Virus record (IMG/VR): IMGVR_UViG_3300045988_138358
DNA: 64,000 nt
From: a virus
Taxonomy: Duplodnaviria > Heunggongvirae > Uroviricota > Caudoviricetes
Direction: 5' to 3' (one strand)
The translations under genes and the position numbers were made by a program. Positions 1,154-59,610 of this stretch are shown here, piece after piece (position 1 is the stretch's first letter; every line of letters begins with the position of its first letter). The notes under the pieces were generated by a model. It did not search any database and was not told where the DNA came from. It saw nothing but the letters and a program-made list of their open reading frames with translations.

Positions 1154-1178
1154 TGTGTCTCAGAAGTGGAGCAAGAAG

Positions 1179-2135
1179 ATGCGCATTTTTATCGACGATG
1201 GTTCAACAAATATCAAAATGCTGTGGGAACACGACGGGGAAACTCGCACGCACATCAGCCCTAACAGCTTTAAGCGCGGATGGTCAGCAACATTTGGTGC
1301 TGGCAAGCCATTTAACTATGTCATTGACGACGAAAAGTATTCGTATGATTTGATCTCGCCAGATGTTCTGCCGACGAATAACGTGGAATGGCAATACAGC
1401 CCGCTTAACGTCCTGGCTGTTCACCACGCCCTGCTGACAAGTGGCATTGAGCCGCAGGAAGTAGAAATTGTGGTTACGCTGCCACTGGCGGAGTTTTACG
1501 ACGACGACGCGCAATACAATCTCGATAACATCGAGCGCAAGAAAGCCAGCCTTATGCGCCCCGTCACGCTGAATAAAGGCAATGTATTCACGATTAAGAA
1601 AGTTACGGTACGCCCGGAGTCTATTCCGGCAGGAATTGGCCTGTGCGACAATCTGACCCCTGCCCACTCTGTTCTTATCGTCGATTTGGGTGGAACTACC
1701 CTTGATGTTTCAATGGTCGCCGGGCAAATGACGGCAGTTTCCCGTGTTTTTGGCGATTCGAATCTTGGCGTCTCTCTGGTTACCAGGGAAGTAAGGCAAG
1801 CACTTGCCAGAGCCAATACCGAAACGTCAAATTACAATGTCGATCAGCTCATTATTAACCGCCACGATGAAGATTATCTGAACGACAATATCAATGACCC
1901 ATCAGCTATTGGTGATGTGAAAAAGGCCATTGCTGCAAGTATTGACCGTCTGCGTACCCGCGTTCTTGATGTGATTGGCGATTTTAAAGGATATACGCAT
2001 GTCATGGTGATCGGTGGCGGCGCACCGCTGGTGGCTGATGCAATTCGCGAGCAAGTTAATATTCGCGATGACCGTTTCTTCGTGGCGGATGACCCGCAAC
2101 TTGCTCTTGTTCATGGCCTGAAAGCAATCGGTTAA
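1179..2135 (+). CDS. parM: actin-like partition ATPase ParM (StbA)
   Basis: MRIFIDDGSTNIK...ISPNSF...WQYSPLNVLAVHHALLTSG closely matches plasmid R1 ParM; start moved to internal Met (ORF track 1155). Confidence 0.85.
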   Translation: MRIFIDDGSTNIKMLWEHDGETRTHISPNSFKRGWSATFGAGKPFNYVIDDEKYSYDLISPDVLPTNNVEWQYSPLNVLAVHHALLTSGIEPQEVEIVVTLPLAEFYDDDAQYNLDNIERKKASLMRPVTLNKGNVFTIKKVTVRPESIPAGIGLCDNLTPAHSVLIVDLGGTTLDVSMVAGQMTAVSRVFGDSNLGVSLVTREVRQALARANTETSNYNVDQLIINRHDEDYLNDNINDPSAIGDVKKAIAASIDRLRTRVLDVIGDFKGYTHVMVIGGGAPLVADAIREQVNIRDDRFFVADDPQLALVHGLKAIG

Positions 2136-2529: not shown

Positions 2530-2585
2530 GTTCCTTTTTGGTGTTAAAATGGCATCAAAGCGACACCAAATGGGCGTCGTTAATG

Positions 2586-2730
2586 TACTGGTGCATACTT
2601 GGTGCTAATTTAGTGCTATTCAGGCGCAAAACGTGTACCAGTATCCATCGGATTTGATGTTATACTTCCGGCATTAAGAATGGTGCTATTGCTGTACCGT
2701 TGATGTGTAAAAGTGGTGCCGTTTTAGTGT
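2586..2730. repeat. GGTGC-type repeat array, candidate centromere for ParF/ParG module
   Basis: Several copies of (A/T)GTGGTGC(C/T)A and TGTACCAGT upstream of the Walker ATPase gene; similar copies recur downstream at 3713-3750. Confidence 0.4.
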
Positions 2731-2758
2731 AAAAATAGAGCCAAAATAAAGCCGAGGT

Positions 2759-3406
2759 ATGGACATGATTATCCTGGTAGCAAGTCAAAAGGGAGGCTGT
2801 GGCAAGTCAACCACCAGCGTCAATATTTGTGCCGAGCTGGCCCGAAAAAACAAAGATGTCGTCTTGATTGATGCTGATAAGCAGGGAACGGCAGCTCGAT
2901 GGGCGTCAGACCGTAATTCGTCCGAAGTGACACCAGTTATTCATTGCGTCCAGAAGTTTGGAAATATTCGAGAAACTCTGCTCGATCTTAACAATCGATA
3001 TGAATACGTGGTTGTTGATACCGCAGGTCGTGATAGTAAAGAGATGCGCACAGGTATAACGGCGGCGGATATTCTATTGGTTCCATTCAGGCCGTCTCAG
3101 CCAGATTTGGACACGCTGGCACACTTTGTTGAGGTGTTTGAAGAGGCTTTGGATCTGATGCCTAATCCCAATATTAAGGCGTGCGCAGTCTTAACTATGG
3201 CCCCGTCAAATCCGGTTGTGAATGAAGCAAATGAGGCCAAAGAGTATCTGGCAGAATATCCGCAACTGAAATTGCTGAAAACCATTATTCGCGATCGCAA
3301 GGTTTACCGCGACTGCATGGCTGAAGGAAAGGGTGTTGTTGAGATGGATAACGGTAAGGCGAAAGGTGAAATTCAGATGTTAGTTAAGGAGTTGCTAAGT
3401 GATTAA
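2759..3406 (+). CDS. ParA/ParF-type small Walker partition ATPase
   Basis: 215 aa; deviant Walker A VASQKGGCGKSTTS; size typical of type Ib ParA/ParF. Confidence 0.85.
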   Translation: MDMIILVASQKGGCGKSTTSVNICAELARKNKDVVLIDADKQGTAARWASDRNSSEVTPVIHCVQKFGNIRETLLDLNNRYEYVVVDTAGRDSKEMRTGITAADILLVPFRPSQPDLDTLAHFVEVFEEALDLMPNPNIKACAVLTMAPSNPVVNEANEAKEYLAEYPQLKLLKTIIRDRKVYRDCMAEGKGVVEMDNGKAKGEIQMLVKELLSD

Positions 3407-3683
3407 ACGTCGAGAACCAGCTAAAGCGCCTAAGGCTACTGATCCGGAACTTGAGCGAAGAATTGAAGAGTTCGCCAGCAAAGCGGATTTAATCCCGGAT
3501 GAAATTACAACGGGGAAGGTGCTTGATAAAGATGCGCCGCGCGACTTTAAATCCATACGCGTGAGCTTTAATGAATATGAGTACGGGGTGCTCGATGCGT
3601 TAAGCAAAAAGCTTAACCGCAGCAAATTGAACCTGATTCGACATGCCATCCTCATGCTTGCTGAGTCAGAGGATGCTAAATGA
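3399..3683 (+). CDS. ParG/ParB-like small centromere-binding protein (putative)
   Basis: 94 aa basic protein overlapping the end of the ParA-like gene, as in type Ib partition operons. Confidence 0.5.
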   Translation: MIKRREPAKAPKATDPELERRIEEFASKADLIPDEITTGKVLDKDAPRDFKSIRVSFNEYEYGVLDALSKKLNRSKLNLIRHAILMLAESEDAK

Positions 3684-3802
3684 TACCGATTTGATGCCTT
3701 ATTGGCGTCTATCGTGTACCAGTGCAATAATGTGTCAAAGTGGTGCCATAATGGTGTTAATATACAGCCATATTGATATCAAATTGACACTGTATCGGCA
3801 TC

Positions 3803-3830
3803 AAAAAGCCCCAGGCGGGGCTTTTTCTAT
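3803..3830. terminator. bidirectional hairpin terminator between parG-like and dam
   Basis: GCCCC-AGGC-GGGGC stem with A-run before and T-run after; sits where two converging genes meet. Confidence 0.55.
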
Positions 3831-4732
3831 TTGAGCGTTGCAATGATATCGTTAGCGACTATTCGCGTGGATGCTTTGCATGACACGGACCGTCTGGCTG
3901 GCATGTGGTACAGCTTAAAACCGTTTCTTTCGTACAATTCGCGAATTTTTGGCGCGCCACTGTTTGTTATTACTATCTTTGCACCGCGCTGGTGGGCCGC
4001 CACCAACAGTGATACAAGCCGTTTTTGTTCATCGAAAAGGAAGCTATTTCCTGAATAGCTGGTAAATCCCTCTGTATCTGGCAGCGGCTCATACGGCGGA
4101 TCACAAAAAATCACATCGTCTTCACCAGCCGCCTCGATGACACCAGCAAAGTCACCTGATACAAAGGAAGTGTTTTTGAGTACGTCATCAGCCAAAAATG
4201 CCTTCATCTCTGCATGTGGGAAGTAGGGCGCTTTGTATTTGCCATACCCCACGTTGAACTCGCCATTTTGGTTGTACCGCGTTACGCCATTAAAACAGTG
4301 ACGATTAAGGTACAAAAATGCGGCAGCATGATGTAGTTGGTCATACTTTCCTCTGTTAAATGCCTCACGCACTTCGAGGTAAGCGTCAGCGTTGTTGTAA
4401 TTTTTGAAAAAACTATATGACAGCGTGACGAGCGAATGTCCTTCTCGCTGCAATGTCTGATAGAAGTTAATCAGGTCACCGTTAATATCATTAAGCAGGT
4501 TGTGGCGAAATCCTGCATTCGTAAATACGGAACCGCCACCAACGAATGGTTCTATTAACCGCTTACCGTGTGGTAGATGCTCAAGCACTGTAGGCAATTC
4601 TGAGAATTTACCACCTACCCATTTGAATATCGGACGCTCATATTCATCCGGAGTCCGAATGGTGCGCATATAGCTAATTTCAGCCATCGTATCCTGTTTT
4701 TCTATGGCTATGCTTGCTATAGATTTACTCAT
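3827..4732 (-). CDS. dam: DNA adenine methyltransferase (Dam family)
   Basis: KWVGGK, NRHCFNG and DPPY motifs of Dam-type N6-adenine methyltransferases; start set at MSKS, 2 nt after the stop of the upstream gene (ORF track extends to 4828). Confidence 0.85.
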   Translation of the reverse strand: MSKSIASIAIEKQDTMAEISYMRTIRTPDEYERPIFKWVGGKFSELPTVLEHLPHGKRLIEPFVGGGSVFTNAGFRHNLLNDINGDLINFYQTLQREGHSLVTLSYSFFKNYNNADAYLEVREAFNRGKYDQLHHAAAFLYLNRHCFNGVTRYNQNGEFNVGYGKYKAPYFPHAEMKAFLADDVLKNTSFVSGDFAGVIEAAGEDDVIFCDPPYEPLPDTEGFTSYSGNSFLFDEQKRLVSLLVAAHQRGAKIVITNSGAPKIRELYERNGFKLYHMPARRSVSCKASTRIVANDIIATLK

Positions 4733-5477
4733 AGAGCACCCCCTTATTCGCTTCGAAAACTGCCTTTGCGAATCCATGTGGAGTAGCACTTCGAAAATTA
4801 GCCCTGTCAGGCCCTGGTGGCGCGGCATGGATTCTGTTATCTGGCTTGCCTAATGATTCGTCCATTAGGGCATCAGGCATGACAAAGCCCTGGCCGCTCC
4901 AGAGGCATGTTTTTTTTGTGTAGTTATCTTCCTGACAATATGCAGTGAAGAAGTAAGGGTGAAAGATGTGATCTGGCTTACGCCAGAATGTCGATATTTT
5001 GCTGACCGGATTTTCAATCATGTACGGACAACCGATCATCTTTGCAATGTCATAACACTGCCAGACAACCTGCATTGCTTTGAACTGGAAAACCGGATCT
5101 TTATTAGCCTTGTCCGAAAACCAGCGCGCGCCGGAAACAGCCAGGTCAGTACACGGTGGGAACCCGGCCAGAAACACGATGCGCTGCAAATTCTTACGGA
5201 GAAAAGCGTATACTTCATCGCTATCGATGATCGCACTAATACGCGTCAGAACGGCACCTGATTGCATCCGCTCGTCACTGGTCGATAAGTGCTGTGGATC
5301 GACGATAGCGGCATCGACACCGTATTCCAGCCAGGGGGCAACCATTGCCCCCGTAAAATCACAAAGACTCACAACAAGCTGTCGGTTATTATCGTTCTGC
5401 TTCACCGCCAATGGCCTCCACCAGCGCGTTAAACAGTGCAGATAATTCGCCCGTAAAGAGCACGAAATCAGCATCAA
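4725..5477 (-). CDS. C5-cytosine methyltransferase-like protein (short)
   Basis: FLAGFPPC (PC motif) and IENP (ENV-like) motifs; true start may be a GTG nearer the rdgC stop since the track start overlaps rdgC by about 90 nt. Confidence 0.55.
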
Positions 5478-6294
5478 ATCGTTGTGCTACATCCTCCCGG
5501 TCGATATCGTCGTTCTGGTCATAGAGATCATCACAGAATGTCAGGGCTTTGATACTCATATCATCGTTGACTCTGAACGACGCACGGTCCATCCAGTTAA
5601 TTGCAACGGTCGTAGCTACTTTCCCCGCCTCAATGTGAGACATAATCTCGTCGGACTGTAGATCAACTTTGTTGCAGCGAACGGCACCACCATTATCGAG
5701 CAGACCCTTTAATGTGGCGTCTTCACCTGCTGTAAATCCGGCAGGGAAGCCGCTTTTAAACCACTCGGTCATTGTAATTTCCAGCGGTTCGCGTGGTGTG
5801 AATGGAATGACAGGCAGGCTGCCGAGCGACTTTCGCAATAAAGCCAGCTGGTCCTCTGCCTTTTTGGCGCTGCTTGCCTCAACGAATACCAGATGGTTGC
5901 TGCGGTCGATCAGGATTTTGGCGAGTGATTTTCTCGTGAACGCGCGAGGCAAAAGTGAATGCAGGACTTCATCTTTAAGACTGTCTCTTTCCGTTTTCTT
6001 CAGCTTGCGGGCTTGCTCTTCTTCGAGTTTCAGGACTTTTTTCTGCAACTCTTCCTTGAGCACCTGCGAGGGGAGAATTTTTTCTTCTCGCTTATGCTGT
6101 ATTAGCAGAAAACCCTGGTATTCATGGGTGAGGTTGTCACCAAGAACAGGTGTCCAACCGACTTTAGCTGTGTCCTGAGAACCGCAAGGAGTAAACACGA
6201 ATTTGCTAAGAGCATCGGATACTTCTGCGGCACTCCAGTTAACTTCACGTGAAAGACGATAGATGAAGATGTTTTTGAAAGCGACTGATCTCAT
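5389..6294 (-). CDS. rdgC: recombination-associated protein RdgC
   Basis: Near full-length similarity to E. coli RdgC (YRLSRE..., [41 protein letters not shown] end). Confidence 0.85.
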
Positions 6295-26347: not shown

Positions 26348-26620
26348 TTGTATATGTTGCATAGAGTTTTATGGAAAAGCGTTATTGTCGGCGCGATACT
26401 GGCTATATCTGGGTGTGCAATGGTGCAATACAACGACGGTGAAAAGGTAAGCATACAGTCAGATGGTTGGTATGGCCTGGATAGCCTGCAAAAAACCGCA
26501 GATAAAGCCTGTCAGCAATATGGGAAGTCTAAAGCAGTATATCAGCATAGCGCGAACGCTAACCCTCATCTAGCGCCCGGTTCTGGTGTTCAGAATACCA
26601 TCTGGAAATGTGAGCCTTAA
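26348..26620 (+). CDS. small lipoprotein (putative)
   Basis: Signal peptide ending in lipobox-like LAISGC. Confidence 0.45.
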
Positions 26621-26622
26621 AT

Positions 26623-26874
26623 ATGAGCGACTGGAATATTGCAGCTAAAAGTCAGGAAGAACGGGATAAGGTTAACGTTGATCTGGCTGCCAGCGGTGTG
26701 GCGTACAAAGAGCGATTGAACATACCTGTCATAGCTGAACAGGTAGCCCGCGAGCAACCAGAGAATCTGCGCACCTATTTCATGGAACGGCTACGGCACT
26801 ACCGGCAGTTAAGCCTCCAGTTGCCAAAAGGGAGCGATCCGGTGTATCAGAACGAGGATGCACCAAAAAAATAG
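26623..26874 (+). CDS. hypothetical protein
   Basis: 83-aa ORF 3 nt after previous stop. Confidence 0.4.
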
Positions 26875-26959
26875 CGGCAAGATGGGGGAGAAATGTGATT
26901 AGCCCCCAGCGTGGCGCGCCTACAAACCCAGCTTTCACAAACTATGCCTTTTCAATGTA

Positions 26960-26979
26960 TACTGTATGAATAAACAGTA
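26960..26979. promoter_or_regulatory. LexA (SOS) box upstream of humD
   Basis: TACTGTATGAATAAACAGTA fits CTGT-N8-ACAG, centred about 30 bp before the humD start. Confidence 0.75.
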
Positions 26980-26997
26980 TCATTAAGGTAAAACGCT

Positions 26998-27387
26998 ATG
27001 GGCTTCCCTTCTCCTGCGGCGGATTATGCAGAGAGCCGCATTTCTCTTGATCAGCAACTAATCAGACATCCTTCCGCGACCTACTTCATGCGGGCGGCAG
27101 ACAGCCATCACCGTGAGGGAATATTGCAAGGTGCTTTGCTGGTGGTTGATTCCTCACTTACTCCGGTTGATGGTTCACTGCTTATATGCGCTATGGAGGG
27201 TGAATATCGCATAAAGAGATACAGGAAGTATCCGCGCCAGCACCTGGAGGATTTAAGCACCGGGAAGAAAGAGGCGTTACCAGTAGATGACGATGGATAC
27301 ACGGGCAGTAATGCTGTTTTTGGTGTGATCACTCATGTCATCAATGATGCCCGAAGTGGGGAGTTTGATTATAGACCTGTGATTTAA
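26998..27387 (+). CDS. humD: UmuD'-like protein (pre-processed form), HumD-like
   Basis: MGFPSPAADYAE... aligns with UmuD starting just after its autocleavage site; Ser and Lys of the S24 dyad appear retained; no umuC follows. Confidence 0.75.
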   Translation: MGFPSPAADYAESRISLDQQLIRHPSATYFMRAADSHHREGILQGALLVVDSSLTPVDGSLLICAMEGEYRIKRYRKYPRQHLEDLSTGKKEALPVDDDGYTGSNAVFGVITHVINDARSGEFDYRPVI

Positions 27388-27432
27388 GGCGCATAAAGAA
27401 GCCCGCCAGACCAGGCGGGCTTTTTGTTGATA

Positions 27433-28527
27433 TCATTCAATGATTTTTTCGGCTGTCAGCCAGCTAATTTCGTGCCTGTCTTTCGGCGGTTTTAGCATGT
27501 GAGCATATTCAGCGACATGCTCCCACGGAATTGTTTTTGCCCACTCAACGATAGCATTGTGATCTGCAGTGAAGAGTGGAATAGTGTGCGATTTCAACCA
27601 TTCTAATGTCGTGACGCCATGTTTTTTGGCGTGGTGCTGCGCATGATGCCGGGCTATCACTCGTAATGGCATTGTCCATTCACTACCATCAGGCATCGAA
27701 AAGCGCATTGTCTTCGGCATATCTGATTCAAGAACAGCCTCCCTAATACCAGGGAACTCACCAAGAATCATACGACGATAGTCATCACTATTTCGCCCGC
27801 CATACCTTTCGGCAAAATGATCAAGATATTCTTGGGTAATAAATGGTGAATCCTCCGCACTCAGCTTAATGGCTTTATATACACCACTCGGATTATCTTC
27901 AGCTAAAGCACGTCCATGATGTGAATCATAAAAAAAGCCTATTTCCTCTGGTGACGGAATTGAAGTGAGCAATATGCGTGAATCACCACTAGTCATGCTT
28001 GCCCACACAATGCTGTATGCCCGATCGCTGATATGTGCGGAATCCACAATAATGAATAAAAGATGGTCGGCGTAGTGACCTGCAATGCTATCTTCATAGT
28101 TAAGGCGGTAGTTACAAAAGCACATTCCCCAAAATTCATTGAACATCAGACCGCTATCACCGACCTTAAAATACTCAATGATAAAAGGTTGTTTTTTCAG
28201 CAATGCCTCCCAACATTGCCACACATATGCAACAATTCCTCTTTTGCAAACATTTGATTTTGGATAAACAATTACTGTCCGGGAATCAGGATACATAATC
28301 GTATAAAGGGTACTAATAACAGCAAGCACTTGCGGTCGTCCGATCCCATACGGAGTGGTGACAGTAGCTTTTGCATTATTGGGCTGTATAGCTTCAACAA
28401 TTTGTTGTTGCTGGTGGCTTAAATCAATATCAAACAATTCTTTTGCTGCCAGTACCCAATTGTCTTTATATTTCTCCACCAGCGACAGCCAGCGCGGATC
28501 TTTATAAATATTGCTCTTAGTCGCCAT
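27433..28527 (-). CDS. terminase large-subunit paralog with degenerate ATPase motifs and divergent C-terminus
   Basis: Aligns with PacB-like protein at 33675-35183 (HQQQQIVEAIQ, FYDSHHG...NP.G...I.L..E.SPF), but Walker A GTGKS is replaced by GIGRPQ and Walker B DE by DS; start at internal Met. Confidence 0.55.
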   Translation of the reverse strand: MATKSNIYKDPRWLSLVEKYKDNWVLAAKELFDIDLSHQQQQIVEAIQPNNAKATVTTPYGIGRPQVLAVISTLYTIMYPDSRTVIVYPKSNVCKRGIVAYVWQCWEALLKKQPFIIEYFKVGDSGLMFNEFWGMCFCNYRLNYEDSIAGHYADHLLFIIVDSAHISDRAYSIVWASMTSGDSRILLTSIPSPEEIGFFYDSHHGRALAEDNPSGVYKAIKLSAEDSPFITQEYLDHFAERYGGRNSDDYRRMILGEFPGIREAVLESDMPKTMRFSMPDGSEWTMPLRVIARHHAQHHAKKHGVTTLEWLKSHTIPLFTADHNAIVEWAKTIPWEHVAEYAHMLKPPKDRHEISWLTAEKIIE

Positions 28528-29284
28528 CTGCCACTTCCTTAACTTCTTCTTTGGCCTGTTCTGCAATCGCCGCACGGCATTTCGCCCTGGCCGTAGCGAT
28601 TGCTTCAGCACGCACATCATCAGGAATCGTTGACGTGATATACATATCCAGTTCTTCGGCGCGGAACACTGTTTGGTCCAGATATTCGCGTAGCATCCAG
28701 GTAAATTCGAAATCACACGCGATAATCTCTGCGCTACCTTCTGCACCATTTGGGAAATGAATAAAAGCCTGTTTAGCCAAACCGATAACACGACATGCGG
28801 TTGCCAAAACAGCGGCAACCAGGTTTACATTTTCACACGCTACGGGCTGATTAACGCCGGAGATTACTCCATTTAACTGTCGGTTATATGGAAGGTAGTT
28901 TGAGATGCGTTCTACGCGCCATGTGCCAGTCAGGCTGCCATTCTTAAAGATAATTGGTGTAACGGATAGCCCAAGCTCGCGTATAAGTCGTTGCGCTATA
29001 GCAGGATCATTAAACATGTCTAATGCTACACATTCGAAAGACTGTGCAAGGGTAAACAGTTCTTCCAGAGAGTAGTCTTTGCCCCTGGCGGTGATGTAAC
29101 GATGAACGCCGCTTTCTGCATCACTCCATATAGCTACGCCATGCTCTTCATTCAGCTCTTCATTAAAGCCGAGATACGTCATGATAGTACGTTCAATCGT
29201 GTCAAACGGCAGTGACATGTCGGCGTTAACAGCCACCAGCAGGCCATTACGCAAGCGGTATTGAATTGCTTTAGTATTTTCCAC
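28517..29284 (-). CDS. hypothetical protein
   Basis: 255-aa ORF in the dUTPase operon. Confidence 0.5.
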   Translation of the reverse strand: MENTKAIQYRLRNGLLVAVNADMSLPFDTIERTIMTYLGFNEELNEEHGVAIWSDAESGVHRYITARGKDYSLEELFTLAQSFECVALDMFNDPAIAQRLIRELGLSVTPIIFKNGSLTGTWRVERISNYLPYNRQLNGVISGVNQPVACENVNLVAAVLATACRVIGLAKQAFIHFPNGAEGSAEIIACDFEFTWMLREYLDQTVFRAEELDMYITSTIPDDVRAEAIATARAKCRAAIAEQAKEEVKEVADGD

Positions 29285-29290
29285 GTTAAA

Positions 29291-29755
29291 TCACTCCACT
29301 ACAAACCAGTCACATGCCAGTAAGTCGCCTACAGAAGGCGCCCACGGAACAACTACACCTTGTGCATTTTTTAAGGCGAAATAAGCACCATACGGAACGA
29401 GATCGCCGGGGAAATATCCCTTAATGGCTTCCATTCGTGCCGGGTACTGTCCTTCAGGAACCAGCCAGCAGAATTGGTTTTCGCCGTTCCACCCGCGCCG
29501 GGCAACTTTCTTGCCATCCTTCAGCCACATCAGCGCGTCAGAAAAGTCGGCTGCTTCAAGGTCGATTTCTTCTTGCTGGGTGGTGATGCCACCAGCAGAA
29601 ATAGTTACGCTCCCGGTAAGATTAATCATCACGCCGTTGTCATCCGTAATGATGACCGTGGTTCCATTTTTGGAGGCGTCGTTAACCAGGCCATAGCGTT
29701 CCTCAGATGATTTGGGAAGGAACTTAAAAAGCTCTTTCGTTGCCATGTTATTCAT
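29291..29755 (-). CDS. hypothetical protein
   Basis: 154 aa; ALMWLKDGKKVARRGW motif is shared with the protein at 37437-38012. Confidence 0.45.
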   Translation of the reverse strand: MNNMATKELFKFLPKSSEERYGLVNDASKNGTTVIITDDNGVMINLTGSVTISAGGITTQQEEIDLEAADFSDALMWLKDGKKVARRGWNGENQFCWLVPEGQYPARMEAIKGYFPGDLVPYGAYFALKNAQGVVVPWAPSVGDLLACDWFVVE

Positions 29756-29769
29756 AGTCTTTTCTCTGC

Positions 29770-30264
29770 TTATAACTTTTCGTACTGAAGCGGTGAACGC
29801 TTAATTTCAAAGTGGCCTTCCGATGTGCTACCAAAGCCACCAGCGCCTCGCTCTGTTTCATCGAGTTCATCAACTTCTACCAGCGATACCGGTTCAACAC
29901 GCTCAAAAATGCCTTGCATGACCGCCATTCCTGGCTTGAGGCAAACGCCTTCACCACCGGGATCTGTAATCAGTTTTGCCATGATTTCACCGCGATAATC
30001 GGAGTCGATAATTCCTACGCAGTTAGCCAGGCGAGTATGTTTTTTGCAGCCCAATCCGGAACGCGGATAGAGTTTCAGACACCAGCCGGGCGGGATCTCC
30101 ATAGCCAGTCCGGTGTACACCCACCAGCTTGAGGAAATTGCACCATTGCTATCGACACATGGTTTTATTTCAACAGCCTCAAAATCCATCGCCGCCGATC
30201 CGGAGGTGGCATAAGCTGGAAGTTTTGCTGCCGGATGTAGGCGTTTCACTTTTACGTAAATCAT
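29770..30264 (-). CDS. dut: dUTP diphosphatase (trimeric dUTPase)
   Basis: PRSGL, GIIDSDYRGEI and GGFGSTS motifs. Confidence 0.85.
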   Translation of the reverse strand: MIYVKVKRLHPAAKLPAYATSGSAAMDFEAVEIKPCVDSNGAISSSWWVYTGLAMEIPPGWCLKLYPRSGLGCKKHTRLANCVGIIDSDYRGEIMAKLITDPGGEGVCLKPGMAVMQGIFERVEPVSLVEVDELDETERGAGGFGSTSEGHFEIKRSPLQYEKL

Positions 30265-38465: not shown

Positions 38466-38541
38466 TGGTGGCCCCTACCGGACTTGAACCGGTGACCGTG
38501 CGATTATGAGTCGCCAGCTCTAACCACTGAGCTAAAGGGCC
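38466..38541 (-). tRNA. tRNA-Ile (anticodon CAT, ileX-like; Met not excluded)
   Basis: Reverse complement folds as a canonical cloverleaf with anticodon loop CTCATAA and encoded CCA; very close to E. coli ileX as recalled. Confidence 0.8.
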
Positions 38542-38953
38542 AGATTACTGTTAATTCCGCTTACGCTTTTTGCCAGAACCGCGTAAGGCTTTTGCCGCTT
38601 GCTCGATCCCATATGCAACCACCAGCAGAAATAAAAATGTCCAACCAGGGTTCTTATCGGCAAAGGCCCAAAAATCCATCACTTGCAGCTACCTTTTAAG
38701 ACAAAACGCCATTGCTGTTAGATTGCGGTGCCTGGTGCCTCCAGGTGACGTTAACCAGTTAACAATTAACGCCGGGATGTTTGATTTAACCACTAAGGAG
38801 GATTGTTTTAACTGTTCCGCGTGCGCTTAGCCGCATTCACCGCAATGGTAAGAGCACTTGGCTGGCTGGGCGGCGATGACGCCTGTACGCATTTGGTGAT
38901 CCGGTTCTGCTTCCGGCATTCGCTTAATTAGCCAAATACTCTTAACGTTGCGC

Positions 38954-39040
38954 TGGCGGAGAGTAATGGAATCGAACCATCATCGCTTGCGCAATGGGAC
39001 GGTTTTCAAGACCGCTTGAGCACCATGCTCCCTACTCTCC
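38954..39040 (-). tRNA. class II tRNA, probably Ser (anticodon TGA), atypical D-arm
   Basis: 87 nt; 7-bp acceptor stem, anticodon loop CTTGAAA, long variable arm, T-arm GATGG-TTCGATT-CCATT, G73, CCA; D-arm does not fold canonically. Confidence 0.45.
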
Positions 39041-39185
39041 GGCCGTTGTGGTGGCCGGTACTGAATCTCCGGCATACGGTGCAGCCAATTAGGACTACGG
39101 ACGATCACCGCTCGCGAAAGGGAAGATTTGCGGCCGCATTTCCCTAACATCCAAGAAAGCTATCGCATCAGTCTGCGAATCCACC

Positions 39186-39277
39186 ACAACGTTGAGAACA
39201 CTGGTTGTCACGCTGCAACGCAACATTTATTCGTAGATTGGGATATGACCCCGTTACGTCAGTGTTCTCAACGTTGT
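39186..39277. repeat. perfect 18-bp inverted repeat with 56-nt loop
   Basis: ACAACGTTGAGAACACTG at 39186-39203 and its exact reverse complement at 39260-39277, in the non-coding tRNA region. Confidence 0.6.
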
Positions 39278-39420
39278 AGTACCGGTTACGGTTCCGGCCA
39301 GGCCTCTTCCTCAACGGGGTATTCTCCATACGGACTACCGTTTATTGGTCGTTCCTGCGGTTTATGTTGTGAAGCCAGATGCTTATCTTCTGGTTGCTTC
39401 AAAGAGCTGCACTTCATCAC

Positions 39421-39500
39421 AACGGTAAGGGTACTTCGTAGGGATTCGAACCCTCTGCCAAGCACGGCGATCTCCGACGTCGCAAAATACCCTTACCTGT
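39421..39500 (-). pseudogene. tRNA-like remnant
   Basis: GGGTTCGAATCCC T-arm-like element enclosed by a 10-bp helix (GGTAAGGGTA/TACCCTTACC); no canonical cloverleaf can be drawn. Confidence 0.25.
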
Positions 39501-39505
39501 TGTGT

Positions 39506-39581
39506 TGGTGCCGATTAACGGACTCGAACCGCTGACATCCTGCTTACAAGGCAGGCGCTCTACCAACTGAGCTAAACCGGC
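39506..39581 (-). tRNA. tRNA-Thr (anticodon TGT)
   Basis: Canonical cloverleaf, anticodon loop CTTGTAA, T-loop TTCGAGT, CCA encoded. Confidence 0.85.
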
Positions 39582-39583
39582 AT

Positions 39584-39660
39584 TGGCGATGGTGGGTGGA
39601 TTCGAACCACCGACCGACAGCTTAGAAGGCTGCTGCTCTATCCTACTGAGCTACACCATC
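39584..39660 (-). tRNA. tRNA-Arg (anticodon TCT)
   Basis: Canonical cloverleaf, anticodon loop CTTCTAA, T-loop TTCGAAT, CCA encoded; 2 nt from tRNA-Thr. Confidence 0.8.
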
Positions 39661-44098: not shown

Positions 44099-47000
44099 TT
44101 AGGCCGCATCGGCGATTATTTTACGCAGTTCATCTACCGAGTAACGCGTAGATACCATCCACGCCGGACGGTCAAAGTTCACATCAGCAACCGGGTTTGC
44201 TTCAAAATTCCAGAAACGCCCGCCAATCTTCTTAATCGCGTCTTTGGCGTTCCGTATTGTCGAGGAACCTGGCTGGTCGGCAATGAGATAAACCGCGCCA
44301 ACGTCTTCGCTGACGCTCCACCAGCGCCCGCGAACACGCGCCTTAGCGCGAATCGGCTTATCATTAACCACAATGATATAGTCATCATTCGCCGCTTCAT
44401 CAGCTCTGGCTTCAGCCACTGCCGCCTGCTCTTCTCTTTTGCTTTCAGCCTGCTCAAGCCTTTCCGCGATCTCTGATTCAGTGGCCCCGCCGTTTTTCAG
44501 CGATACATAGTCCTGCCACGTTGCCGATTTGAGCGCATCCGGCAACTCATTCACATAGTCGCCGTCTTTCAACTCACGGGCGCGACGGGTAGCCATTTCT
44601 ACCAGGCGATTAACAGAAACAGCATCAGCAAAATCGTCCTTACTAATGTGTTTTTCATCAAATGCATTGATGACAGCCCCCACCTTAATCCACTGTGCTG
44701 CTGGCGAATCCAGAGGATTATCGGCCTGAACAATGGCTAATTTCGCTCCATCGACACCATTATTAGCCAGCTGCTCCAATGCCGACCAGCCATCGGCATC
44801 GCTGAGTGATTTATATTGCTCAAACAATGCATCGCGCCAGGCCACCAGCGCAGCTCGTGTTTTCTCAATTTTCGCCGTAATTTTCGCGGCCTTCACCTGA
44901 TTAAACATCCGTTCAATGTCATCAGTGTTGCTAAAGGCTTTCATCCTGCCCTGGAATAAACGGTATGCCACCACGGTCTTCCAGAAAGATTCCAGCCCTT
45001 CTCCGGACGGTTTACGGAACAGGCTAAGAATATCTTCAGAAGTAACTTTATTAAGTGAGCGACCGGACAAACCACGCCCTGCCATCCAGTTTTCAAACTC
45101 CTGGGAAACATCATCCATCGTGGCCTGTGACCCCCATGCCTGCATTCCCTGGATGTAATCATATCCATACAATGCCTGGAGGAATCCCTCTCCGTCCACG
45201 ATATTCAGCGGGTTATCACTGGCTTGTATTTTTGCCACTTCACGCTTCAGCGCCTCATCGTTGCCATCAGGGTAAATCCACCGCTCAGGCGCTATATCCG
45301 ATGCTCGCCCGATTTTTTGACCTATTACGCCATCATAAGCCGATGACAGTGCAATCTGACCATCATCGGTGCGATAAGCCCAGTATTTAATAGCTGAACC
45401 ACCGCCCCATACTCTACCAGGCTTCCCGGCAGTGACATTCATTACCCCATTGCGAATAGCATCATAGAACTGATCGCGCGTAAGTGTTGTTGATAGCTGG
45501 TGGCATTGAACACCACGTGCAGCTGTTTCACGCGATTCTGCAACTCCCTCTTCAAAGGTTACCGATTCAATTATCAGGTTAAAGGGCAAAAATAATGCCG
45601 TCCCCGGAGAACGAGAGTAACGACTAGCCACATCCAGCCAGGATATGCGGCACGTACACCCGCCCCTTTCCGCATCAATGGCGGTAACACGAACAATTGC
45701 TGTCGTATTGTGATTCTCATCGATGATCGCGCGATAATGGCTGCCCTTGTGCAACAAGATATTTTTCTCAGTGCGTACATACTCCTGTGGGTTCTGCAAT
45801 ACATCGGCATCAAGCTCCAGAACCCCGGCTTTAATCGCACGTTCCAGATCACCACGAGAACGTTTCATAACGGTGTCAGCGTCTTTAGCTCTGGTGATCG
45901 CAAAGCGTAGCTCCCGCACACGTTTTCTGTAGTCTCGCAACTGTTCCAGAACATATTTCTGCCCGTTCCTGTTCGTCCCCGCTTTAATCAGGTCGTCAAC
46001 ATTGCGCTGGTAATGCTCTACCTGCTCCATCGCGCTTTTCAGTTCAGTCTCCATCATGCCGATATCTTTCCCGGCAGCATTCGCCGCTTTCAGGTAGTTA
46101 TCGAGAGCATTATTGGCTTCGCGTAGGGCTTTCAGTTTCAGACGTTCTTCACGCTCTTGCGCCTGACGACTCATGATTGCACGGCGTTCTTCCGGATTTG
46201 CCGCCAGCATAATGGCGCGTTCATCTGCGTCATCCGCATCACCATTGGCGATCTCTGACATGTCGGAGGTCATCACCATATTGATCCAGTCCTTCTTACG
46301 TTTCAGCGTATCCAGACGGAAGTCATCAAATGTGCCTTTGCCACAATAGTAGTGAACATTGACCTTTTCTTGTGGTGAGCCTACCCGAGCGCCGCGTCCA
46401 TTACGTTGGTCGATACTGGCAGGAGTCCAGGGTAGTGTCAGATGGTGGATATCGGTTGTCCCGATGTGCAAGTTAATACCTACTTCAGCCTTCTTGTTAC
46501 AGATTATGATGCGCGTGCGACCTTCGTTATAGTCGGCGGCAATACCTTCCATGCCCTCAAGGCCAGCATCATTTTTAGCTGAGAGATAATCCTCATATTG
46601 GGCAAGTTTGCTGTAGTAGGTTTCCCATGCACCTTCTTTGTATTCACCGTTTTTATTTGGCGTAGGTTCAGTCGGCTTATTCACCTTCTTCAGCTTGACG
46701 CCGCCAGCCTGGCTAACTGTCGTCGCATTGATAATGCCTATCTCCTGCTCCGGCATTTGCAGTGCACTGGCAATAATACGGCGCAGCTTCTGGTGCTGGG
46801 CTTTTTCATCAATGAAGACGATTTGTTTACCGTTCTTCAGACCTTCACGAAGGTTTTCGATCAGCGCGGCATACTTCGGCGGGATGGGGTGTGATACCTG
46901 CTGCATATCAATACCGGCAGCCGCAATGGCCTTCAGTATTTCAGCTTCCAGTTCAATGCCAGCACGTATTTCAACATGCGACGGATGTTCGCTAAAGGTG

Positions 47001-50000
47001 GTCTTCACTACCTTGCTGGTACGCGTACTGACCAGCCCACCAGCGCCATCTTCTTCGGCATCGTCTACATCATCTGCCACTTTACCGCCAGCTACTTTTG
47101 GCAGGGCATCAGCAATAGCTTTTACCTTGTCTGCAAGCTCAACGGGGAACTGGAATGTAATCGCACTGGCATACAGATCAGGATCTATAGCAACCTTATC
47201 CATGTCGCGGATGATGGAGAAGATGAAATCATCCGGTTTTTCGTTTGTGATATGCCCGTTTTCATCGACCGTCAGCGCATCTTTACTGCTTAACTCCTGT
47301 GCACGCTTACGAAGTTCTTCGTAAATGGCCTCTTGCTCTCCTGTCATCGGGATCTGCAAGGTATTCTCGACAATATCAGGGATTTTTACCGTCGCCCCGA
47401 CGTCAGCAGCAGTCTTCAGAGTAGTCCAGCGATGGAAAATACCACGCAGACCATCCAGGTTCTGGAAGCCCACCAGTCCCTGCTTCTCTTCCACCTCACC
47501 GGAAATTTTCTGAACCTGAACTGTGGCTGTTTTACCGAACACGCGAACGAAATCATCCGGCGTAACAATACCCATGCGCATCCACTCTTCCTGCGGAATG
47601 ACAGTAGACAGCATGTTGAAAGCATCAATCGGGCTGTTCACCAGCGGTGTTGCCGTCAGCATAACCACACCACGCCCGTTGTTGCGTTTCATCATGTACG
47701 CAGCTTTTACAGCCATGTCGCGGGCCATTTTGGATACTGCCGGGTTAGGCAAATATGCCAGTTGCCCCGCTTCGCGCCCGGCGCTAAAGGAGTTGCGGTA
47801 GTTATGCCCTTCGTCGGCAATTACGCTATCGAAGTTCATATCCTCAAAGTACGGGATATTCTGCTTCTTCGTTGTACCGGTATTTGCGGCCTGGTCCTTA
47901 ATCTTGTTCTTCTTCTGCGCGTCACGGTGTTTGCCAGATGCCAGGTCAAGACGCCCCATTTCCACAGCATTAAAGACCGCTTGCTGTGAGTTTTCCTCAA
48001 TGGTTTCTTCTCGTAGCGGGATAGACGCGAATTGCTCTTTTGTCATGATGACCGTTCGCCAATTTGACGACGGGATCATGTTCATGCGCTGAACGATAAC
48101 GGCGCTGGCGGACTCTTTCACAACATTTCTGGTAAGAGCCTGCCCGTTACTGTCGAGGCGTGGTTCGCCATTTTCATCAAGCACCGGCGCGGTCAGAATA
48201 TTTCCGCTGTCATCACGAACTTCATCCAAACCGATAAACATCATATTGGCGAAGGCATCAGCACTGTAGAAACTCTGTGCCTCGTGATACCAGTTCTGAT
48301 AAACCGCCTTCGGAACAACAATACACGTGCGTTTAGTGCGACCTGTTTCGAAGTTATACGCCTCAAGCGCAAGCGCGGTCGTGGTTTTACCCAGCCCGGT
48401 GCCAAATCCCATGATGCCGCGCCCATCTTCTGATAAGCGACGAACTTCTTCATTCTGATAAGTCAGAGGAATGCGCTTCCCACTAATCCCCTCCAGGCCA
48501 AGCGGTGCGTCAGAATGCGTAAACGGGATGAAGCCATTAAATGCGTCGTTATAGTCGCGGGCTATCTGATCAGCCTGCGGGTGAGTGCGTAACCAGTCGT
48601 TGAAGCTAATTTCCAGTTGAGCAATCTTATCCAGGTACTCGTTAGCGTTCTGCCCACGCGGTTTAATGCCGTTCAGGTAGTTTTCTAACTGGTTCAGGAA
48701 GCCGTCTTTATTGTTGGCCTTCTTGAACTCATTCCCGTTTTTGCCGTTTACGGTTCGTAGTTGATAGCCAGTAAATACCCCGTCCTTACCTTCGTAATCG
48801 TCCGGAGATACCAGAATGCCGTCCTCAACCTTAAGGTCGGGTTCTGTATACTTAAACTCGTCATAGCCTTGCTCTGCCAGGAACTCTTTTATCAAGCGGC
48901 GATCCAGCCAGCGGGCGTTCAGATTAACGGTGACTTTATTTAGTGGCGTGAAAATGCGTTTCTCTTCGATTTTCGCCAACTGACGCTCAAAGTTCGCTTT
49001 CTGCTCACCTGTTGACGCATCACGCCAGCCCACCAGCAATGCTGTTTTGGTTGCAATATCGCCGCTGGTGGCGCGGTCCATAGGCAGCAGGCAGCCATAC
49101 CCATCAATAGCGATATCATCAAATTTCGCCAGGTATTCCAGAGCAGCATCGTCGTCTCCTGGCAGTTCGCCAGCAAACGCCTCACGAAAATAGTCCAGTG
49201 TGATTGGATTAAGTGCCACGTCACTGAAAAGGTGGGTTACAACTTGTTCCGGGCGTGTAAAGTCAATACCGGCAGCACCATCCGTTACATCAAGTCGTCC
49301 AGCAAGGAGGTCAGAAGCAGAGCCGTCCTGTTTCACGTTGCCAGTGAAAGTCATCCAGTTTTTAGCGCCAGCTTCAGCAATCCCATTCAGCTTAATCGCG
49401 TGCGGCGGACCATACTTCGCAATTTCGGCTTCCGCCAGGCGCGCGGCATCAGCAAGTTCATCATCAACATTTTCCCCCAGATTACGCTTATCAAGCGCCT
49501 TGTTGATCAACTGCCCTATCAGTGCGCCGCGCATAACGCGTTCTCTGTCTTTTTCTCTCTGCTTGCCAGCAAAGCGAATCATTGCCGCTACTTCATCACT
49601 GATAACCGACGGATAGTCGGACGCGATCGCCGATATCTGGTCCCATGACAACGCCAGAATGCCATTTGTTGACTGAAACGCGATCTGCAGATCACCAAAC
49701 GTCGTAACACCATATCGATTTACATCAAGCGCGGAGGATTTGGTTGTCGCGTCCTTGACCCATTTCAGACCATCAAACTCATGCCAGATGCCGCCTACAA
49801 GGCGTTTATCGCCCACTTTCGCGCCCTGCCATGCCTGAGTAGTTACGCCAAGCAAATCCCAATTAATGCGGCTTTCAAAGCGGCGCGATAGAGCGGTTTT
49901 CATCGACTCATTGGATACACGACCGTCCTTTTTCACCACCAGGGTATTGCGGAAGCTGGTACGCTCCATATCGCCGTAAACAAATCGCTTCCCTTCGGTT

Positions 50001-50938
50001 GTAAACCATTTCCCTTTGAGGAAGGTATCCCAAAGGACGTTTGCCGACTTGAGCGTTGCATCATCCGTGTCGGGGATCATCTCCAGGAAGGTTTCCGGGT
50101 GTTTACGCAATACCCATACGTCCACCACTGTATCTGTACCGGATTCGCTGAACGTACCAGAAGGCATACGATGTGCGCCCAAAAATTCCGCTTTACGGCT
50201 GACTTTATCGCGCAATTTTTTGTATTTCGTACCATCGGTCATGCCATTCGGCACCACCAATACAATTAGTCCACCAGGCTTAACCTTGTCGATCGTGCGC
50301 AGCACAAAATAATTGCCAACGTTCTTCTCGTTTGCATATGCCGGATCAAGCCCGGCGACACCGGAACGCCCTTCGCCAAACGGTACGTTACCAACAGCAT
50401 GGTCATACATTGCGTCTTTCGCCGCCAGAGCTTCAAACGCCCCGATATTCACATCGTCTTCCGGGTGCAAAAGCTGGTTTATTCGACCGGAAATCGGAGA
50501 CAGTTCGGCGCTGGTCATTATCATGCCCTGCCGTTTTGTCTCCTGGAAAATACCTGTGCCCGCTGATGGTTCCAGTACGTGCCCACCATCAATACCGTAG
50601 TCAGCAAACAGATCCCATATACCTTCAGCCATAAACTGTGGCGTGTAGTATTCGTATTGGCTGCCCTCACCATCTGTCAGGCCACCTTCACCGGTATACC
50701 CGGCAAGAATCTGACGTTGTTCGTCAGTTAATTTCGCCCCATCGAAGCCGGGCGGAAGGGAATTAAGAAGATTTACTGCGGCATTGTTTGCTGCCCGGCG
50801 TGTTTTCTGAATACTGACGCCATCGGCTTTCCTGACGCCAAAGGTCGCAACAGCACGTAATTTATGCAACCGACTAACAATTTCAATCAGTTCGCCTAAG
50901 CTGGAGGCTTCACTGATTGAATGAAGTAGTTTGTCCAA
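44099..50938 (-). CDS. darB: giant methyltransferase-helicase, DarB-like anti-restriction protein
   Basis: 2279 aa; N-terminal methyltransferase-like region (GNVPFG), central helicase motifs (GFGTGLGKTTTA, VIADEGHNYRNS); size and domain order match P1 DarB. Confidence 0.75.
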   Translation of the reverse strand: MDKLLHSISEASSLGELIEIVSRLHKLRAVATFGVRKADGVSIQKTRRAANNAAVNLLNSLPPGFDGAKLTDEQRQILAGYTGEGGLTDGEGSQYEYYTPQFMAEGIWDLFADYGIDGGHVLEPSAGTGIFQETKRQGMIMTSAELSPISGRINQLLHPEDDVNIGAFEALAAKDAMYDHAVGNVPFGEGRSGVAGLDPAYANEKNVGNYFVLRTIDKVKPGGLIVLVVPNGMTDGTKYKKLRDKVSRKAEFLGAHRMPSGTFSESGTDTVVDVWVLRKHPETFLEMIPDTDDATLKSANVLWDTFLKGKWFTTEGKRFVYGDMERTSFRNTLVVKKDGRVSNESMKTALSRRFESRINWDLLGVTTQAWQGAKVGDKRLVGGIWHEFDGLKWVKDATTKSSALDVNRYGVTTFGDLQIAFQSTNGILALSWDQISAIASDYPSVISDEVAAMIRFAGKQREKDRERVMRGALIGQLINKALDKRNLGENVDDELADAARLAEAEIAKYGPPHAIKLNGIAEAGAKNWMTFTGNVKQDGSASDLLAGRLDVTDGAAGIDFTRPEQVVTHLFSDVALNPITLDYFREAFAGELPGDDDAALEYLAKFDDIAIDGYGCLLPMDRATSGDIATKTALLVGWRDASTGEQKANFERQLAKIEEKRIFTPLNKVTVNLNARWLDRRLIKEFLAEQGYDEFKYTEPDLKVEDGILVSPDDYEGKDGVFTGYQLRTVNGKNGNEFKKANNKDGFLNQLENYLNGIKPRGQNANEYLDKIAQLEISFNDWLRTHPQADQIARDYNDAFNGFIPFTHSDAPLGLEGISGKRIPLTYQNEEVRRLSEDGRGIMGFGTGLGKTTTALALEAYNFETGRTKRTCIVVPKAVYQNWYHEAQSFYSADAFANMMFIGLDEVRDDSGNILTAPVLDENGEPRLDSNGQALTRNVVKESASAVIVQRMNMIPSSNWRTVIMTKEQFASIPLREETIEENSQQAVFNAVEMGRLDLASGKHRDAQKKNKIKDQAANTGTTKKQNIPYFEDMNFDSVIADEGHNYRNSFSAGREAGQLAYLPNPAVSKMARDMAVKAAYMMKRNNGRGVVMLTATPLVNSPIDAFNMLSTVIPQEEWMRMGIVTPDDFVRVFGKTATVQVQKISGEVEEKQGLVGFQNLDGLRGIFHRWTTLKTAADVGATVKIPDIVENTLQIPMTGEQEAIYEELRKRAQELSSKDALTVDENGHITNEKPDDFIFSIIRDMDKVAIDPDLYASAITFQFPVELADKVKAIADALPKVAGGKVADDVDDAEEDGAGGLVSTRTSKVVKTTFSEHPSHVEIRAGIELEAEILKAIAAAGIDMQQVSHPIPPKYAALIENLREGLKNGKQIVFIDEKAQHQKLRRIIASALQMPEQEIGIINATTVSQAGGVKLKKVNKPTEPTPNKNGEYKEGAWETYYSKLAQYEDYLSAKNDAGLEGMEGIAADYNEGRTRIIICNKKAEVGINLHIGTTDIHHLTLPWTPASIDQRNGRGARVGSPQEKVNVHYYCGKGTFDDFRLDTLKRKKDWINMVMTSDMSEIANGDADDADERAIMLAANPEERRAIMSRQAQEREERLKLKALREANNALDNYLKAANAAGKDIGMMETELKSAMEQVEHYQRNVDDLIKAGTNRNGQKYVLEQLRDYRKRVRELRFAITRAKDADTVMKRSRGDLERAIKAGVLELDADVLQNPQEYVRTEKNILLHKGSHYRAIIDENHNTTAIVRVTAIDAERGGCTCRISWLDVASRYSRSPGTALFLPFNLIIESVTFEEGVAESRETAARGVQCHQLSTTLTRDQFYDAIRNGVMNVTAGKPGRVWGGGSAIKYWAYRTDDGQIALSSAYDGVIGQKIGRASDIAPERWIYPDGNDEALKREVAKIQASDNPLNIVDGEGFLQALYGYDYIQGMQAWGSQATMDDVSQEFENWMAGRGLSGRSLNKVTSEDILSLFRKPSGEGLESFWKTVVAYRLFQGRMKAFSNTDDIERMFNQVKAAKITAKIEKTRAALVAWRDALFEQYKSLSDADGWSALEQLANNGVDGAKLAIVQADNPLDSPAAQWIKVGAVINAFDEKHISKDDFADAVSVNRLVEMATRRARELKDGDYVNELPDALKSATWQDYVSLKNGGATESEIAERLEQAESKREEQAAVAEARADEAANDDYIIVVNDKPIRAKARVRGRWWSVSEDVGAVYLIADQPGSSTIRNAKDAIKKIGGRFWNFEANPVADVNFDRPAWMVSTRYSVDELRKIIADAA

Positions 50939-59517: not shown

Positions 59518-59610
59518 AATACACTCCCCTTACATAGAAAGCAGGAAGTGTAAAAAGTGTGTGATTTATGGACTTACAGGAAAGTGAAAGGGGCATTTCA
59601 GCCCCTTTGA

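Follow-up and report, generated by a model that had tools for sequence, protein, structure and literature searches.

Can a temperate phage hand its host a DNA polymerase V subunit that is already activated, under the control of the SOS response and in the absence of a polymerase gene of its own? This question is raised by a short gene in the stretch of DNA analyzed here, which is 64,000 nucleotides in length and is called the window below. The window is part of a P1/D6-like phage-plasmid of E. coli. It encodes ParM, a Dam-type methylase, RdgC, Ref, Hot, dUTPase, a tyrosine recombinase, and terminase, and further carries four tRNA genes and the genes for a 2,279-aa DarB-like protein, a portal protein, a DdrB-like protein, and DarA. 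The gene in question, humD, follows hot after a gap of 123 bp. The coding features of this region are as follows.

26623-26874, plus strand: hot, a homologue of the DNA polymerase III theta subunit (Pfam DNA_pol3_theta, 116 bits), outside the humD unit
26985-26988, plus strand: Shine-Dalgarno sequence AAGG, 9 nt before the humD ATG, by direct reading
26998-27387, plus strand: humD coding sequence, a pre-truncated UmuD' homologue of 129 aa plus stop, with an ATG start and a TAA stop

The preliminary description had given 26960-27387 as the extent of the locus. This span holds for the LexA box and the ORF taken together but not for the ORF itself, which starts at 26998; position 26960 is where the LexA box begins.

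Where does the HumD product begin in relation to UmuD? Its N-terminus reads MGFPSPAADY, and the translation begins MGFPSPAADYAESRISLDQQLIRHPSATYF. In a MAFFT alignment with K-12 UmuD, the GFPSPAADY motif is the same in the two proteins, and Gly2 of the product falls on Gly25 of UmuD, directly after the Cys24-Gly25 cleavage site. By sequence matching, residues 2-118 of the product align with residues 1-114 of the chain in the UmuD' crystal structure 1UMU (E 6e-23), while residues 2-116 align with residues 25-136 of the full UmuD in the pol V structure 8GMT. Thus, 1UMU, 8GMT, and MAFFT alike bear out the earlier statement that the ORF begins at the equivalent of the first UmuD' residue. The S24/UmuD' fold was taken as settled because of the match to the solved 1UMU structure. 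An in-frame TAA lies two codons 5' of the humD ATG and there is no alternative start codon between them, so that a longer humD product is impossible. A longer, cleavable form translated from an upstream start was thereby ruled out. Both the alignment and the check for upstream stops revealed that the cleavage site with its N-terminal arm is absent and that the initiator Met alone precedes the Gly residue. Since the arm cannot be encoded, the product does not need RecA-mediated cleavage, as had been proposed. The position of the Shine-Dalgarno sequence is kept as GAGG or AAGG across the homologous loci in the locus alignment.

The family assignment is unambiguous in the model scores. The product matches the NCBIfam equivalog model NF051876, 'HumD family translesion DNA polymerase', from end to end (residues 1-129 on positions 1-129 of 129) with 210.3 bits against a cutoff of 120, while it stays under the cutoff of 110 for the UmuD subfamily model NF007621 (86.9 bits). 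It also matches Pfam Peptidase_S24 (PF00717; 35.1 bits against a cutoff of 23.3) and PHROG 811, 'UmuD-like protein' (E 1e-54). A repressor of the LexA or CI type was considered and rejected, as there is no N-terminal DNA-binding domain; the TIGR00498 lexA model gave 25.7 bits against a cutoff of 110.95, and only its positions 91-168, in the C-terminal domain, were matched. The model score, the UmuD'-type start, the sequence of the LexA box, and the lack of umuC on the element together place the gene in the HumD family. All 129 of 129 residues are identical to those of WP_052896600.1, a RefSeq protein named 'HumD family translesion DNA polymerase'. Identity is 43% to K-12 UmuD (over UmuD residues 25-139), 124/129 (96%) to P1 HumD, 125/129 to P7 HumD, and 122/129 to D6 HumD. 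Two of the five residues that differ from P1 HumD, D125Y and C126R, lie within an otherwise well-conserved C-terminal tail. The dN/dS values of humD against P1, P7, RCS47, D6, and Cyrano are between 0.06 and 0.12, which, as judged from the coding sequences, indicates strong purifying selection on humD.

Is the pre-truncated form peculiar to P1-like elements? A survey of 50%-identity cluster representatives gave 3,447 matches at E<=1e-3, among them dozens of distinct pre-truncated clusters, and the best 150 of the 3,447 were examined. Seventy-nine complete-looking sequences (77 representatives, this HumD, and K-12 UmuD) were aligned, and 41 of the 79 start at the column of UmuD Gly25. The pre-truncated MGFPSPA... 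architecture is a broad class. The Ser-Lys dyad of self-cleaving S24 proteins is present in this HumD, where S36 and K72 align with S60 and K97 of UmuD, although the conserved GDSM motif is altered to A-DSH with a one-residue deletion beside the serine. Both dyad residues are kept in 3 of the 41 pre-truncated sequences, all three belonging to the P1 clade and this HumD being one of them, versus 24 of the 30 full-length UmuD-like proteins. This difference fits a putative decay of the protease site once self-cleavage had become unnecessary.

The retained dyad raises another reading, in which HumD of the P1 clade is an active S24 protease in trans, cleaving for example host UmuD in a heterodimer and thus speeding the activation of pol V. 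The equivalents of UmuD Ser60 and Lys97 are in place for such a reaction, and intermolecular cleavage by UmuD-like proteins was reportedly described by McDonald et al. in 1998-99. Trans-cleavage of host UmuD by means of the dyad kept in the P1 clade is formally possible. However, the scarcity of the dyad among the pre-truncated representatives compared with the full-length proteins speaks against a protease, as do the altered motif and the deletion beside the serine, and the persistence of the dyad in the P1 clade seems to reflect slow decay and not selection. I consider the trans-protease very improbable.

Another trait of the pre-truncated class is a conserved acidic C-terminal extension of ~10 residues, which is absent from UmuD. 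The extension follows the consensus SGEFDDCPV[IM]; GGEFDDTPF and EFHDNLPF are among its variants. Of the representatives classed as pre-truncated by a strict definition, 9 of 30 contain the tail motif, compared with 0 of 36 full-length ones. The tail was likened to the amphipathic acidic tip of SSB (DFDDDIPF), which recruits about 20 genome-maintenance proteins. This apparent resemblance is a lead and not a result. If it were true, HumD or the HumD2-UmuC complex would dock on the binding pockets for the SSB tip or on SSB, which would provide a private route of polymerase recruitment. In the present allele, the tail is partly degenerate (EFDYRPVI, ending in DYRPVI where P1 HumD has DDCPVI), and the SSB-tip idea may therefore hold less well for this allele than for the family. 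It seems unlikely on the whole that HumD-type proteins do more than imitate UmuD', be it by a docking tail resembling the SSB tip or, separately, by the dyad of the P1 clade.

Is humD controlled by LexA? The following site lies in front of the gene.

26960-26979, no strand assigned: predicted LexA operator (SOS box) TACTGTATGAATAAACAGTA, 17/20 to the consensus and unique in the window

The 20 bases of TACTGTATGAATAAACAGTA have near-perfect dyad symmetry, and 17 of them agree with the LexA consensus TACTGTATATATATACAGTA; the CTGT-N8-ACAG core occupies 26962-26977 within the 20-mer. No other SOS box with three or fewer mismatches from TACTGTATATATATACAGTA exists in the 64-kb window, and 0 of 100 shuffled windows contained such a site. 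If both half-sites, TACTGT and ACAGTA, are required and one mismatch is allowed, 0.09 sites are expected. The minimal 16-mer CTGT-N8-ACAG was rejected as evidence by itself because it is not significant, with 0.65 sites expected per window and at least one in 48 of 100 shuffles. Thus, the case for the SOS box rests on the 20-mer and on the conservation across phages. The box ends 18 bp before the humD ATG and its center is ~28 bp upstream of it, and so the SOS box that had been described about 30 bp upstream of the gene is present. The K-12 umuDC box TACTGTATATAAAAACAGTA, which is 18/20 to the consensus and 19 bp from the ATG, shows the same geometry.

The cross-phage comparison is the strongest evidence for the predicted box. 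A LexA box was found 14-21 bp before the start codons of the HumD homologues of P1, P7, RCS47, D6, Cyrano, CMS-2020a, N15, HK639, and yong1, and the distance is kept in 10 diverged homologous loci though the flanks differ. In a DNA alignment of nine loci, the invariant columns are roughly TACTGT...ACAGT and a G of the ribosome-binding site, while the flanks cannot be aligned between phage groups. The sequence of the box is identical in RCS47, D6, and pTB423, and the P1/P7 box, annotated as 'LexA', differs from TACTGTATGAATAAACAGTA by two spacer bases. Some loci deviate from this arrangement; the box of phiKO2 is 44 bp upstream of its humD homologue, Aeromonas phage pAEv1818 has one perfect half-site upstream of its homologue, and HK140, whose homologue follows another small gene, has no LexA box within 200 bp upstream. 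The GenBank records of P1, P7, and phiKO2 annotate the site as a LexA binding site, the P1 record with the wording 'LexA binding site in the regulatory region of lxr and humD'. Repression of humD by LexA is probable because of the sequence of the site, its conservation, and its annotation in P1, P7, and phiKO2.

It may be asked whether the ORF and the palindrome are nothing but a chance coincidence, or a decaying remnant devoid of function. The minimal motif alone is common enough for chance, and P1 humD proved dispensable for lytic growth when screened by CRISPRi (PMC10695390). These points are outweighed by several others: the 20-mer was matched in none of the shuffles, the box and the ORF occur together across diverged phages, the dN/dS values are low, the curated equivalog model is matched over its full length, and homologues are found by the thousands in the survey described above, many clusters of them pre-truncated. 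Chance or decay is effectively refuted by this sequence evidence, and its probability is close to nil.

The predicted transcription signals delimit a small unit around humD.

26934-26963, plus strand: putative sigma-70 promoter of humD, with -35 TTCACA at 26934-26939, an 18-bp spacer, and -10 TATACT at 26958-26963
27396-27429, no strand assigned: intrinsic terminator, probably bidirectional, between humD and the minus-strand block convergent with it

The promoter matches the consensus at 10 of 12 positions and is the only promoter-like site on the plus strand in 26600-27600; the number of promoter-like sites in the region is not above the shuffled expectation, and the humD promoter is a prediction. 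The predicted -10 and the left half-site of the box share bases, so that LexA on its operator would block access to both the -10 and the start region of this predicted promoter. Read-through transcription into humD from the upstream hot gene is possible. The terminator has a 12-bp stem with a GC-rich core (GCCCGCC/GGCGGGC) and a 6-nt loop, followed by TTTTTGTT. Its RNA fold has an energy of -23.8 kcal/mol (z = -5.1), and none of 200 shuffles was as stable; the terminator scan calls the same hairpin on the minus strand too. The N15 and phiKO2 records annotate an equivalently placed terminator behind their humD homologues. The next gene after humD is convergent and belongs to a block encoding a 364-aa phrog_5902 protein, a 255-aa phrog_2326 protein, a Tad2-like protein, and Dut. 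Because it has its own terminator and a convergent neighbor, humD constitutes a moron-like, monocistronic unit of the kind seen in N15 and phiKO2.

Does the element encode a partner polymerase? A tblastn search with K-12 UmuC against all frames of the window gave a best E of 0.21. Pfam scanning found a Y-family polymerase domain in none of the 19 ORFs of at least 280 aa in the window; smaller ORFs were covered by tblastn alone. A 461-aa ORF on the minus strand (27433-28818) was considered as the partner gene and rejected, as it has no polymerase similarity. It is an over-extended call, and the real product is the phrog_5902 protein of ~364 aa mentioned above, which has an unknown function. Since the window is part of a replicon, the complete sibling plasmid pMTY12355_3 was also used. 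This plasmid of 92,738 bp can be aligned with 57.2 kb of the 64-kb window, and the HumD that it encodes is identical to the present one. It has no match to UmuC (best E 0.30), and no such gene is among its 115 annotated features. Thus, the lack of a UmuC-like polymerase gene stated in the preliminary description was confirmed both in the 64-kb window and in the 92.7-kb sibling plasmid. A pol V operon of the umuDC type was rejected for this locus, given the terminator right after humD, the convergent next gene, and the lack of a UmuC homologue. Chromosomal umuDC is present in the host species, E. coli.

How does the locus compare with known systems? The HumD proteins of P1 (P1_gp103, YP_006569.1) and P7 are likewise 129-aa orphans with an M-G-F-P-S-P-A start on P1-type phage-plasmids. 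The LexA box is 19 bp from the ATG in P1 and 18 bp here, and hot lies upstream of humD here as in RCS47, D6, P1, and P7. Unlike the present locus, RCS47, and D6, where lxr is absent, P1 has a divergent lxr gene between hot and humD. Therefore, the box of the present locus serves humD only, while that of P1 serves lxr and humD. P1, P7, RCS47, and D6 have phd-doc downstream of humD, whereas the terminator and the convergent block are found here instead. These differences from P1 are minor. More distant relatives are N15 gp26, phiKO2 gp23, and the UmuD-like proteins of HK639, HK140, pAEv1818, and yong1. These belong to lambdoid or linear-plasmid prophages and not to P1-like elements. They are 44-67% identical to the present HumD and share the pre-truncated MGFPSPA... 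start, but have T, Q, or Y in place of the dyad Ser and, in some cases, M or R in place of the Lys. In the loci that were fetched, there is no adjacent umuC; the genes are moron-like single genes beside tail-fiber or partition genes, with, for the group as a whole, a LexA box before and a terminator after.

E. coli UmuD (1UMU, 1I4V, and 8GMT) resembles HumD in its S24 fold, as judged by sequence, and in a LexA box that overlaps with the promoter. It is, however, a 139-aa precursor from which an arm of 24 residues is removed by RecA-stimulated self-cleavage, and it is co-transcribed with umuC. HumD has no arm, no cleavage site, and no partner gene, and is longer by ~10 residues at the C-terminus. 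The mucAB, impCAB, samAB, and rumAB operons also provide SOS-regulated UmuD homologues that are borne by mobile elements and promote mutagenesis. These operons encode a full-length, cleavable UmuD-like protein together with its own UmuC-like polymerase; the present element encodes neither.

What, then, would the protein do in the host cell? Work by McLenigan et al. in 1999 is said to have noted that P1 HumD has the size of UmuD' and is missing a umuC partner, and HumD reportedly restored mutagenesis in non-mutable strains. The protein was reportedly poorly expressed; it is also reported to have dimerized and, in vitro, to have bound both UmuC and RecA filaments. The RefSeq record of P1 describes humD with the words 'DNA repair; functionally complements E. 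coli UmuD'' (McLenigan et al. 1999, J Bacteriol 181:7005), and PMC7092418 supports a UmuD'-type function of P1 HumD with host UmuC. I infer a partnership of the present HumD with UmuC and RecA because it is 96% identical to P1 HumD, for which the activity has been shown experimentally. The idea that the phage supplies the activated subunit to host UmuC during SOS is supported, and it is the published conclusion for the P1 protein.

An opposite effect on the host has also to be weighed. HumD may be mainly a modulator or an antagonist that binds UmuC, host UmuD/UmuD', or RecA filaments without forming a productive polymerase, in which case host pol V, recombination, or SOS signaling would be damped to the advantage of the plasmid prophage. 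Such a role would suit an element that has no polymerase of its own; the C-terminal tail of the family, which UmuD lacks, could add or change partners; and the adjoining hot gene, as well as ref and rdgC elsewhere in the window, also target the host replication or recombination machinery. On the other hand, the P1 orthologue is on record as complementing UmuD', that is, as promoting mutagenesis, and the UmuD'-like core is under purifying selection. Antagonism is thus an improbable main function, and none of the three rival readings considered in this study is favored.

It is highly probable that humD of this P1/D6-like phage-plasmid is a self-contained, monocistronic SOS unit that supplies a UmuD' look-alike to host UmuC. 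The proposed course of events is as follows. In an undamaged cell, host LexA would sit on the operator over the -10 and start region and keep humD off. DNA damage would activate RecA, LexA would be cleaved, and humD would be transcribed as far as the hairpin terminator past its stop codon. As HumD begins where the RecA-mediated cleavage of UmuD would end, the slow post-translational activation would be skipped. HumD would then dimerize and join host chromosomal UmuC and the RecA filament to form a translesion polymerase like pol V. Damage tolerance and mutagenesis would increase as a result, for the host as well as for the plasmid prophage residing in it.

How common is this unit? A 24-kb stretch with humD inside it is covered to 80% or more by 33 plasmids of PLSDB. 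Of 5,426 complete E. coli genomes, 696 (~13%) contain the 491-bp humD unit, and 711 of its 728 places are on plasmids. PGAP names the product at the locus 'HumD family translesion DNA polymerase' or 'S24 family peptidase'. The locus is a textbook humD module that is already known: curated models name it, its P1 orthologue has been characterized, and many E. coli genomes carry it. The finding is not a discovery and re-identifies a gene to which the NCBI pipeline already gives its HumD family name. It confirms the standard humD SOS module on this P1/D6-like phage-plasmid, and as it stands it matters little by itself. It may serve as background for the possibility that plasmid prophages raise stress-induced mutagenesis in their hosts, for example under antibiotic exposure. 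The small added value is comparative. It lies in the apparent decay of the dyad and in the C-terminal tail of the HumD class, both described above, and in the observation that a LexA box followed by a pre-truncated ORF recurs as a conserved module of two parts in widely different temperate phages.

As listed below, humD follows hot on the same strand, and a convergent block lies downstream of it.

26623-26874, plus strand: hot, homologous to the theta subunit of DNA polymerase III (Pfam score of 116 bits)
26998-27387, plus strand: humD
27433-30264, minus strand: convergent block, containing the next four genes
within the block, minus strand: phrog_5902 protein of 364 aa with a weak terminase-large-like stretch
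within the block, minus strand: phrog_2326 protein of 255 aa
29291-29755, minus strand: Tad2-like (Thoeris anti-defence) protein (PF11195, E 2e-22)
29770-30264, minus strand: dUTPase

The distance between hot and humD is 123 bp. In P1, a divergent lxr gene lies between the two, whereas the spacer of the window lacks lxr, as do those of RCS47 and D6. A 5-bp GGGGG/CCCCC stem was found in this spacer at about 26886-26907. Since the stem has no T-run, transcription from hot may read through into humD. On the other side of humD, the phage-plasmids P1, P7, RCS47, and D6 have phd-doc in place of the convergent block. A mechanical call of a 461-aa ORF with a TTG start (27433-28818, minus strand) was rejected as an over-extension that overlaps by about 300 bp with the upstream gene (28517-29284). 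In the sibling plasmids, a 364-aa product is annotated, in agreement with a start at the ATG at 28527.

Elsewhere in the window, the following genes were found.

1155-2135, plus strand: ParM
3827-4828, minus strand: Dam-class methyltransferase, neighbouring ParM
5389-6294, minus strand: RdgC homologue, in the same neighbourhood
38466-39660, minus strand: tRNA cluster of four genes (Met-CAT, Ser-TGA, Thr-TGT, and Arg-TCT)
44099-50938 and 58153-61943, minus strand: P1-type anti-restriction set, comprising a DarB-like protein of 2,279 aa with SNF2 helicase and N6-methylase signatures, a DdrB-like ParB-domain protein, and DarA

The ParM is of the actin type, unlike the ParAB partition system of P1. 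At the place corresponding to the tRNA genes, the sibling plasmid pMTY12355_3 has five (Ile, Ser, Thr, Tyr, and Arg) rather than four; thus, the tRNA set differs among close relatives. The same plasmid has glnS, encoding a glutaminyl-tRNA ligase, in its non-aligning segment opposite about 2550-3840 of the window.

In the phages HK140 (locus L013, 1-1590) and phiKO2 (locus L012, 881-1584), the humD homologue adjoins a phage-borne dinI gene. DinI binds the RecA filament. The two phiKO2 genes are divergently oriented, with one annotated LexA site between them. In HK140, humD comes after a small upstream ORF, and no LexA box was found within 200 bp of humD.

HumD-type proteins share a C-terminal extension that is missing from UmuD (consensus ...SGEFDDCPV[IM]; variants GGEFDDTPF and EFHDNLPF). 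The tail motif is present in 9 of 30 pre-truncated versus 0 of 36 full-length representatives among the best 150 of 3,447 matches. The tail resembles DFDDDIPF, the C-terminal tip of SSB. In the window, the tail is encoded by the last 10 codons of humD (27355-27384) and reads EFDYRPVI, which differs from P1 HumD by D125Y and C126R; this variant is also found in pMTY12355_3 and pTB423.

I also compared the catalytic residues, using the 50%-identity cluster representatives from the same best 150 of 3,447 matches together with the HumD of the window. Only 3 of the 41 aligned sequences starting at the UmuD Gly25 column retain the equivalents of both Ser60 and Lys97. All three belong to the P1 clade and include the HumD of the window, in which the residues aligned to this dyad are S36 and K72. 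Both residues are retained in 24 of 30 full-length UmuD-like proteins in the survey. From these alignments, it seems that the protease dyad decays after the loss of the cleavable arm.
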